Of a stretch of 64,000 nucleotides of DNA, positions 27,066-28,199 are shown one piece after another. The position numbers were made by a program, and so were the translations under genes. Under the pieces are notes generated by a model. The model was given only the letters and a program-made list of their open reading frames with translations, had not been told where the DNA came from and made no database searches. This stretch comes from Escherichia coli. GTDB taxonomy: Bacteria; Pseudomonadota; Gammaproteobacteria; Enterobacterales; Enterobacteriaceae. The stretch lies in assembly GCF_002854065.1 (NCBI RefSeq), contig NZ_CP024147.1. One strand, given 5' to 3'. Each line of letters begins with the position of its first letter. The stretch's first letter is position 1.

Positions 27066-27739
27066 AGAGTAAAACTCATTAGGATTATCAGAATTCGGCC
27101 AATGCATTGCAAAAATGAAATACAAAGAGAGATGTGTGCAGGCGCTTAGCCGCGAGGGGCATGGCGAAGCCATACAGAAAGCACCAGCATTCAGAACTCC
27201 TGTGAAAGCGGCATAGTGCCGCTGCTCAGGAGTTTTGTTATGACCCGTATCGTGCTGAACGTTGCCACCCTATGATGCGATTAAAAAAACTCACCGTCGA
27301 GCCGATGATTGACGTCAATGCTATCGGATGATGCCGGGGGTGTTCCGGAAGGAATTCCTTGTTTCCCGAACTGTTACCAACAAAATTATAACGATGAGCA
27401 AGTAAAGACCGGTTGGTGGCAGTACTGACCGGTCTGTGATGGAAGATTAATTTCACCTTAAATCCTGGTGCTGTTAGGATGCTGACGTTTTTCGGCTACA
27501 CCATTCAGATTATGCAAATAAATATCCCTGAATATAATATATTCATAGCACCCATAACTCATCCTGGGCGATAACTAAACCATTTTTGAGTAACAAATGA
27601 AACAACTGCAACGCTCTTATTATTTCTGGAAAACGTCTCGCAAAAACAAAACAACATGCAGAAATCCGCTTTCGTTAATTAATTTTCCGGCGTAATTTTC
27701 GCACATACATTAATGAGTAATATATGTAAGGTGGTGGTA

Positions 27740-27958
27740 ATGGCGATGAATACGGTTTTTCTTCATTTATCAGAAGAGGCAATTAAACGGCTGAACAAGC
27801 TTCGGGGCTGGCGTAAGGTTTCACGATCTGCAATTTTACGCGAAGCGGTAGAGCAATATCTGGAACGTCAGCAATTTCCGGTACGTAAAGCAAAGGGAGG
27901 CAGGCAAAAGGGGGAGGTAGTTGGTGTTGATGATCAGTGTAAGGAGCATAAGGAATGA
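27740..27958 (+). CDS. yiiE: CopG/RHH-like small protein YiiE
   Basis: 72-aa ORF MAMNTVFLHLSEEAIKRLNKLRG... Confidence 0.88.
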   Translation: MAMNTVFLHLSEEAIKRLNKLRGWRKVSRSAILREAVEQYLERQQFPVRKAKGGRQKGEVVGVDDQCKEHKE

Positions 27959-28199
27959 CAAAAATTTTTCATTCTTGAATATAAAAAAACAGATGCCCTT
28001 ATTCTGGTATTAATACAAGGCTGTTTTACTTGAACTTATAATAACTGCAACTGTTACATCATATCTGGAAAACGCCTCGCAAAAATAAAAAATGATGCGT
28101 AAATGAGCTTTCTTTAAAGATTCGACAAGGGTACTTTTCTCTCCATAGATATCAAATGATATTGGTCAAATATTTATGAACTCTCTGGCAGGTATTGAT

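Follow-up and report, generated by a model that had tools for sequence, protein, structure and literature searches.

Why are two neighbouring genes for small ribbon-helix-helix (RHH) proteins, yiiE and yiiF, preceded by nearly the same stretch of DNA more than 100 nt before their start codons? The window, by which we mean the whole 64-kb stretch of Escherichia coli DNA analysed here, covers the fabY(yiiD)-yiiE-yiiF-fdhE region, and the original prediction for it was a duplicated upstream segment that might serve both genes as a common operator. The explanation that we favour, and offer tentatively, is that the repeat is the distal 5' control part of an old vapBC toxin-antitoxin (TA) operon, whose core would dock a factor upstream of a sigma-70 promoter. 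An element of this kind is ordinary; its conservation is striking. No published description of it was found in the literature searched.

A duplicated upstream element with a conserved core

The motif CTGGAAAACG[T/C]CTCGCAAAAA, which had been noticed in front of both genes, matches the + strand exactly at the two 21-nt cores given below, and the 64 kb hold no further match with up to three mismatches (chance expectation, 0.02). A repeat search of the window placed both cores within an ungapped direct repeat with a spacing of 439, in which 72 of 100 positions are identical; the repeat described earlier is thus present, but its size, put at about 60 bp, was understated and is 100 nt instead. The 21-nt cores differ in a single base (20 of 21 identical). 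When the two non-coding upstream regions alone were aligned locally, the score was 66, as against 19.0 +/- 2.4 for 500 dinucleotide shuffles (z = 19.6), and a similarity that extends over 100 nt at 72% identity is no short chance match. The proposed similarity of the distances to the start codons was also confirmed, the core lying 114 nt from the yiiE ATG at 27740 and 111 nt from the yiiF ATG at 28176, or 135 nt from the shorter, 72-aa yiiF start at 28200. The parts of the repeat are as follows.

27601-27700, + strand: copy A of the duplicated upstream element, before yiiE (repeat family D1; 72% identical to copy B).
27622-27653, + strand: core A with its flanks, ATTT-CTGGAAAACGTCTCGCAAAAA-CAAAACA (21-nt core at 27626-27646; 28 of 32 positions identical to core B).
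28040-28139, + strand: copy B of the duplicated upstream element, before yiiF (repeat search and shuffle test).
28061-28092, + strand: core B with its flanks, ATAT-CTGGAAAACGCCTCGCAAAAA-TAAAAAA (21-nt core at 28065-28085; 28 of 32 positions identical to core A).

Scanning one genome per species yielded 38 related loci, in nearly all of which the core stands at the same position upstream of vapB, the gene to which yiiF corresponds (see below). Its consensus, (A)TTC-TGGAAAR-N3-CTCGCAAAA, is asymmetric and 21 nt long. Among 28 distinct variants from more than 10 genera, G3, G4, A5, T13, C14, G15, A17 and A19 are invariant, T2, A7, C12 and C16 have one exception each, and positions 8-11 vary freely; the intergenic flanks of the core carry almost no information in the aligned orthologous regions. 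Most genera have 111-112 nt between core and start codon, with 111-114 nt as the overall range, and a conserved TAnnnT -10 candidate follows the core at 66-67 bp. Trabulsiella and Lelliottia retain the core, both without the hydrolase gene that neighbours vapB elsewhere, and core B is identical across all sampled Escherichia yiiF alleles. The 105-nt element is at least 95% identical in ~87% of 5,413 E. coli genomes, which may be set, as a rough comparison, beside the only ~44% of E. coli genomes that hold the 1.75-kb region at 95% identity or above. Because the core is also near-invariant in genomes that have a single copy, gene conversion is not the cause there; the core is tied to vapB and under selection, and not merely homogenised by gene conversion.

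Origin of yiiE and yiiF

Five further features bear on the history of the two genes.

27524-27537, + strand: outermost upstream end of the duplicated unit, ATCCCTGAATATAA, with its counterpart at 27971-27984 (ATTCTTGAATATAA; repeat family D12, spacing 447).
27740-27958, + strand: yiiE, encoding a 72-aa RHH protein, an Escherichia-specific paralog of vapB (Pfam RHH_1, E = 1.1e-11; annotated as yiiE in RefSeq).
28176-28418, + strand: yiiF, encoding an 80-aa RHH protein, the vapB ortholog and here an orphan antitoxin gene (matches in PDB; alternative 72-aa start at 28200).
28463-28545: insertion resembling a repetitive extragenic palindrome or bacterial interspersed mosaic element (REP/BIME), in place of the vapC start (Rfam ES036, 36.8 bits with a gathering threshold of 37.6; partial naRNA4 match).
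28591-28711, + strand: pseudogene remnants of vapC, a PIN toxin gene, with a 5' piece at 28591-28655 and a 3' piece at 28656-28711 (local alignment to the intact vapC of locus L001).

By protein similarity and gene order, yiiF is the vapB antitoxin gene of an old chromosomal vapBC operon, located between fabY and fdhE in Enterobacteriaceae. Its product matches PDB 2K5J, which is YiiF itself (E = 1.6e-39), and the VapB chain in the Klebsiella pneumoniae VapBC crystal structure 7BY2/7BY3 (E = 1.1e-36); against Pfam RHH_1 the YiiF of the window scores 18.9 bits, just below the cut-off of 20.5, and its ortholog at locus L001 gives 5.6e-06. The order fabY, divergent alpha/beta-hydrolase gene (not in all), vapB, vapC, convergent fdhE recurs in 30 or more loci, among them those of Citrobacter, Klebsiella, Kluyvera, Superficieibacter, Salmonella diarizonae, Kosakonia and Franconibacter, and an intact PIN gene is present at 28 of the 38 related loci. 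In E. coli MMC-J-0091 the gene at the yiiF position is followed by an intact PIN-domain VapC toxin gene, the stop and start codons overlapping. Directly downstream of yiiF in the window, in 28418-28711, there is no intact PIN toxin gene, only vapC fragments, whose two pieces are separated by an internal deletion, and the REP/BIME-like insertion of the window is missing from the intact locus L001. In the window, the vapBC module is a remnant and yiiE and yiiF are orphan antitoxin genes.

The chromosomal VapBC of K. pneumoniae (PDB 7BY2/7BY3; Kang et al. 2020, J Med Chem, as cited in PMC11117207) has a VapB chain orthologous to YiiF, and its locus, L029, shares the synteny, the core (ATGGAAAGCGGCTCGCAAAAA) with its distance, and the proximal box. 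Unlike K. pneumoniae, the window has its PIN toxin gene only as a fragmentary pseudogene and carries the additional paralog yiiE. The start of yiiF is ambiguous in the window strain: the 80-aa start at 28176, chosen by the Prokaryotic Genome Annotation Pipeline (PGAP), lacks the GGAGG Shine-Dalgarno (SD) sequence of intact vapB loci, and the 72-aa start at 28200 (MDRIILDL) is preceded by a weak GGCAGG.

That the pair arose by tandem duplication, regulatory region included, had been proposed for the window and is supported by the collinearity of the units, by the paralogy of the proteins and by the restriction of YiiE to Escherichia/Shigella. The units 27540-27960 and 27975-28420 align end to end in direct orientation and are collinear over ~440-450 bp; the repeat families D12, D1 and D2 link them at spacings of 447, 439 and 457. 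YiiE and YiiF are paralogs with 42% identity (E = 2e-13), and homologs of YiiE occur in Escherichia/Shigella only, whereas YiiF/VapB orthologs occupy the same locus in more than 10 genera. The edge match (27524-27537 and 27971-27984) sets the start of the duplicated unit ~215 bp upstream of the start codons. Thus yiiE, many variants of which are truncated, is an Escherichia-only tandem duplicate of vapB that brought these ~215 bp of upstream DNA along. Between the units, identity peaks at 83% at the core, equal to that of the best-conserved coding stretch, as against 23-47% in the gene-proximal segment 27701-27745: the distal element was held while the proximal promoter/operator zone diverged. 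Two y-genes of E. coli K-12 are thereby given an origin, yiiF as the vapB left by a decayed vapC and yiiE as its genus-specific duplicate.

Promoter candidates, operators and the role of the core

Between the core and the start codons lie the following candidates.

27693-27698, + strand: candidate sigma-70 -10 hexamer TAATTT for yiiE, 67 bp past the first base of the core.
27706-27729, + strand: yiiE gene-proximal region TACATTAATGAGTAATATATGTA with the palindrome CATTAATG, a candidate YiiE-specific operator/promoter.
28132-28137, + strand: candidate sigma-70 -10 hexamer TACTTT for yiiF, likewise 67 bp past the first base of its core, with the T, the A and the final T conserved.
28154-28178, + strand: degenerate VapB proximal box (AAATGATATTGGTCAAATATTTATG) before yiiF, its SD sequence and -10-like hexamer mutated in the window.

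A sigma-70 position weight matrix (PWM) was scanned across 25 aligned orthologous regions and gave two consistently placed -10 candidates, namely TAnnnT (alignment column 253), for which, paired with a -35 at a distance of 17 bp upstream, a promoter was scored in 24 of the 25 regions, and TGnTATACT (column 298), found in all 25. Relative to TAnnnT the core spans about -80 to -59; the nearest promoter candidate that is conserved has its -35 some 20-25 bp downstream of it. A sigma-70 promoter over the core itself, on either strand, was rejected, the consensus scan of the + strand being empty and the PWM scan of the 25 regions without a consistent site there. Intact loci carry a proximal box, AATGATATACTGGAGGTATATATG, composed of TGnTATACT followed by the SD sequence GGAGG and the ATG, and containing the inverted repeat ATATAC-N5-GTATAT; this box (TGATATAC-N5-GTATATATG) is kept in all 25 orthologs, those without a core included. 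The corresponding gene-proximal region of yiiE, 23-47% identical to the yiiF unit, is invariant among Escherichia yiiE alleles.

We suggest that the core would work on double-stranded DNA as a protein docking site, at about -80 to -59 of a sigma-70 promoter, in the manner of an upstream activator or anti-silencer type site and possibly aided by the A-tracts that follow it. The docking factor would be common to all modules of the locus, and each antitoxin would have its own operator in the diverged gene-proximal palindrome; the protein bound at the core is probably one other than the two antitoxins. Host-factor sites upstream of TA promoters are familiar from the Fis site upstream of mazEF P2 and from the LexA boxes of SOS-controlled TA loci. 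In these, a conserved site of its own stands before a TA promoter and apart from the antitoxin operator, which is the arrangement that we propose here; the core matches neither the Fis, the IHF nor the LexA consensus by eye. Control of the locus by a host factor is plausible, given that the island is AT-rich (31-43% GC), that yiiE has been flagged as H-NS-bound and goes up 2.5-fold on SlyA overproduction (PMC5797941), and that YiiE appears among the SlyA targets listed from genomic systematic evolution of ligands by exponential enrichment (gSELEX; PMC6134199). An RpoS gSELEX peak in the yiiD-yiiE spacer (PMC5493296) lies ~0.7 kb upstream of the core by coordinate estimate and is not informative.

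Several observations weigh against a docking site of this kind. Its placement at -80 to -59 depends on a -10 that is itself a prediction, for in the supplements of PMC4782308, PMC4591121, PMC3923258 and PMC9104697 neither transcription start sites nor binding data turned up for yiiE/yiiF; the -35 predicted with it is weak, and TGnTATACT, if it is the promoter, would place the core near -100. The motifs of PhoB, CpxR, OmpR, PurR, IclR/AllR, FadR, MarA/SoxS, SlyA, IHF, Fis and H-NS, compared with the core by eye, gave no convincing match. Among yiiE copies the core varies in its left half, so that the yiiE core copy may be decaying. Finally, all genomes with several cores also carry VapB/YiiF, so that cross-regulation by YiiF would be possible.

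This last point belongs to the alternative that survives best, although we judge it unlikely: the core would be an operator for VapB/YiiF or for VapBC, either the main one or a distal one acting through looping to the proximal box, and YiiF would cross-regulate yiiE and the RelE/NadS pair found at some related loci. Conserved DNA upstream of type II TA operons most commonly serves as the antitoxin operator, which counts in favour of this alternative, and the operators of the RHH systems FitAB, RelBE and CcdAB likewise consist of conserved DNA upstream of the RHH antitoxin gene. VapB/YiiF is, moreover, the sole DNA-binding protein encoded at the Citrobacter and Klebsiella loci, the fixed spacing from the core to the proximal box would suit looping, and the core can be read, if weakly, as an imperfect direct repeat, CTgG-AAAG / CTcGcAAAAG, with 11-bp phasing. 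However, there is no dyad within the core and no consistent inverted partner of either half downstream, the core overlaps no promoter, and its sequence is unrelated to the proximal GATATAC/GTATATC box, which every ortholog has. Unlike the RHH operators just named, the duplicated core is asymmetric, lies upstream of the promoter candidates and is common to modules with unrelated antitoxins, an identical core preceding the RelE/helix-turn-helix (NadS) module.

The proteins point in the same direction. In Kosakonia, Cedecea and RIT693, VapB has the beta-strand GRILLDLS, identical to that of YiiF, and the proximal box is kept, yet the core is missing. Conversely, the YiiE strand NTVFLHLS (T/F/H) differs from the YiiF strand GRILLDLS (R/L/D) at all three positions that we take, by alignment to CopG, to be base-contacting, and the YiiE core copy keeps its right half despite this difference. 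The box ATATAC-N5-GTATAT itself looks like an operator of an RHH TA system, resembling the GTATAC motif of CcdA, and is more likely than the core to be the VapB operator. The earlier idea of one autoregulated operator common to both RHH proteins thus finds no support in the asymmetric core, in its position off the promoter or in the differing residues of YiiE and YiiF, although these do not refute it.

A broader proposal, which we regard as improbable, is that the core is recognised by a DNA-binding factor of enterobacteria, or by RNA polymerase acting in a -24/-12-like mode that is non-canonical, and that this factor co-ordinates the TA modules between fabY and fdhE independently of the antitoxins, the same repeat setting the junctions at which modules are shuffled. 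If it were true, the locus would be a chromosomal array of TA cassettes with its own combined regulatory and boundary repeat. Apart from this proposal, the core is a short cis-element of very strong conservation, in which GG ... CTCGC offers a clear target for mutation, and it could serve as bait for the factor in control of a chromosomal vapBC operon for which structural work exists in K. pneumoniae. Should that factor be a host regulator and not the antitoxin, the locus would add to the TA operons known to be under host control. The wider significance is modest.

Recombination, remaining readings and neighbouring features

Up to three direct core copies, each before a module (RelE/NadS, yiiE, yiiF-vapC), are found in E. 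coli, Pseudocitrobacter and K. spallanzanii, as would be expected if the core were primarily a recombination site, that is, the boundary repeat of a small TA-cassette array at which cassettes are exchanged or excised. In Citrobacter the single-core region is a join within the core, its hydrolase side equal to that of copy 1, and its vapB side to that of copy 2, in Pseudocitrobacter/E. coli; in E. whittamii a hydrolase-side core is fused to a yiiE-side core, and the yiiF-vapC deletion begins in the yiiF core, with microhomology to the vapC 3' end. We nevertheless consider it very unlikely that this is the primary role of the core. None of the loci examined has an integrase or recombinase, the core is without attC-like or dif-like symmetry, and the element keeps to one chromosomal locus, with a median of 2 and at most 4 places in an E. 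coli genome; its plasmid matches are chromosome-sized or megaplasmid records, and the four pattern matches on viral contigs stand in unrelated contexts and are within a rough chance estimate. The yiiE/yiiF duplication runs ~100 bp past the core, junctions in repeats are expected from ordinary homologous or microhomology deletion, and single-copy genomes conserve the core though no partner is present. The direct-repeat copies are crossover points at which modules of the locus are lost or kept, which explains the presence/absence polymorphism of the modules; because there is no recombinase and no site symmetry, we take this recombination to be a side effect and not a function. A dispersed or mobile element was rejected on the confinement to this locus in E. 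coli, the plasmid and viral matches being discounted.

The junctions can be followed in individual strains. In E. whittamii (L043), the core fusions fall in 2290-2860, where the hydrolase gene is reduced to a short 5' plus 3' remnant, and the yiiF core is joined to the vapC 3' end as CTCGCG followed directly by CAATACGAGAG; the same type of junction occurs in E. coli E15 (L004 2885-2905). In E. coli EC65 (L005 3963-5576), two inserted genes, one for a DUF6708 protein and one for a hypothetical protein, separate the yiiE-like and yiiF-like genes, with a breakpoint ~25 nt upstream of the yiiF core. In L003 (2440-2470) and L004 the copy upstream of yiiE reads ATAACTGCAACTGTTACAT as in the yiiF copy, and the left half of the core is changed to TTGGATGCCG; together these are evidence that the copies have undergone gene conversion and that the left half is less constrained in the yiiE copy.

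The form of the core also recalls a sigma-54 (-24/-12) promoter, TGG-N10-GC, which would drive a ~90-nt leader before the antitoxin genes. This spacing is present in 27 of the 28 core variants, the variable triplet falls at the N4 spacer of the sigma-54 consensus, the -12 region TCGCA resembles the TTCGCT of glnAp2, and no sigma-70 promoter overlaps the core; sigma-54 promoters such as glnAp2 likewise have GG and GC 10 bp apart, a free spacer and a TCGC -12 region. However, the core has TGGAAA where sigma-54 promoters have TGGCAC, and its A at -23 is absent from all 50 chromatin immunoprecipitation sequencing (ChIP-seq) sites from which we built a sigma-54 PWM. With this matrix the core scores 1.7-6.8 bits, far below bound sites (minimum 7.9, median 16), and 200-400 17-mers in the window score as high or higher, while the positive controls within the window score normally, with 14.6 bits for glnAp2 and 12.5 bits for the fdoI site, so that the matrix works. 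The main text and supplementary files searched of the E. coli K-12 sigma-54 ChIP-seq paper (PMC4591121) and the main text of the RpoN gSELEX paper (PMC8743547) contain no yiiE/yiiF site. An enhancer-binding site was not evident, though no search was aimed at one, and the Trabulsiella core starts 11 nt past the fabY stop codon. On the PWM score and the absence from the searched lists of binding sites we rejected a sigma-54 promoter as the principal explanation and leave it only a slight chance. Of the two control sites, the glnAp2 match, TTGGCACAGTTTTCGCT, is at 16586 on the - strand, 84 nt upstream of glnA, and the other, TTGGCGCGAATTCTTCA, at ~30140 on the - strand, resembles by its sequence the intragenic fdoI site reported by Bonocora et al. 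2015 and is presumably that site.

A role in RNA, as a binding site for a protein or small RNA or as a processing site in a long 5' leader, has a minimal chance in our estimate. It would agree with the fixed distance from the core to the start codon, with the GGA motifs and the ARN-like, A-rich run that follows the core, and with a weak upstream promoter candidate that in some genera overlaps a LexA-like box. RNAalifold, however, returned 0 pairs for 21 sequences, with no consensus structure or covariation, Rfam has no match in the element at E <= 1, and no consistent promoter lies upstream of the core, the gap to the fabY stop in Trabulsiella being only 11 nt; the invariant GG ... CTCGC with its free spacer looks like recognition of a duplex. 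A small ORF across the core was rejected for lack of a conserved frame or start codon.

That the repeat has no present function, its copies being residually similar or maintained by gene conversion, is just as hard to credit: the yiiE-upstream copy of some strains has yiiF-type sequence (CTGTTACAT), indicating conversion, the window yiiF has lost its toxin, SD sequence and proximal -10, and many yiiE variants are truncated, but the cores remain 20/21 identical while the coding regions are down to 42% protein identity, and more than 10 genera have single-copy genomes in which the core hardly varies and the flanks are randomised.

Three neighbouring features of this variable locus may be described. 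The RelE/NadS pair, encoding a RelE-like protein (103 aa) and a NadS/HTH_3 protein (96 aa), lies between the hydrolase gene and yiiE/vapB in some E. coli, Pseudocitrobacter and K. spallanzanii (L003 924-1526; L015 1385-1987; L032 ~1060-1656); it has its own perfect palindrome, GTACGTCAATGACGTAC, near its start, and the third core copy lies ~140 bp upstream. The divergent Abhydrolase_3 hydrolase gene next to vapB is preceded, at ~17-32 bp, by a conserved palindrome resembling a LexA box (CTGTATGGATATACAG and variants; L009 2319-2334, L003 712-727, L015 1173-1188, L029 2318-2333, L051 2817-2832), which suggests that the hydrolase is SOS-regulated. Hydrolase gene and box are both absent from the window and from K-12, and the box belongs to the divergent hydrolase side; an association of the element with the two was rejected, Trabulsiella, Lelliottia and E. 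coli K-12 having the core without the hydrolase. The third feature is a 615-aa ORF (window 25218-27065, + strand) without a Pfam match, in the AT-rich island between fabY and yiiE. K-12 lacks this ORF, its similarity to the window beginning at ~27362, and in near-identical strains the region is annotated as a partial hypothetical protein and a 'transposase'.

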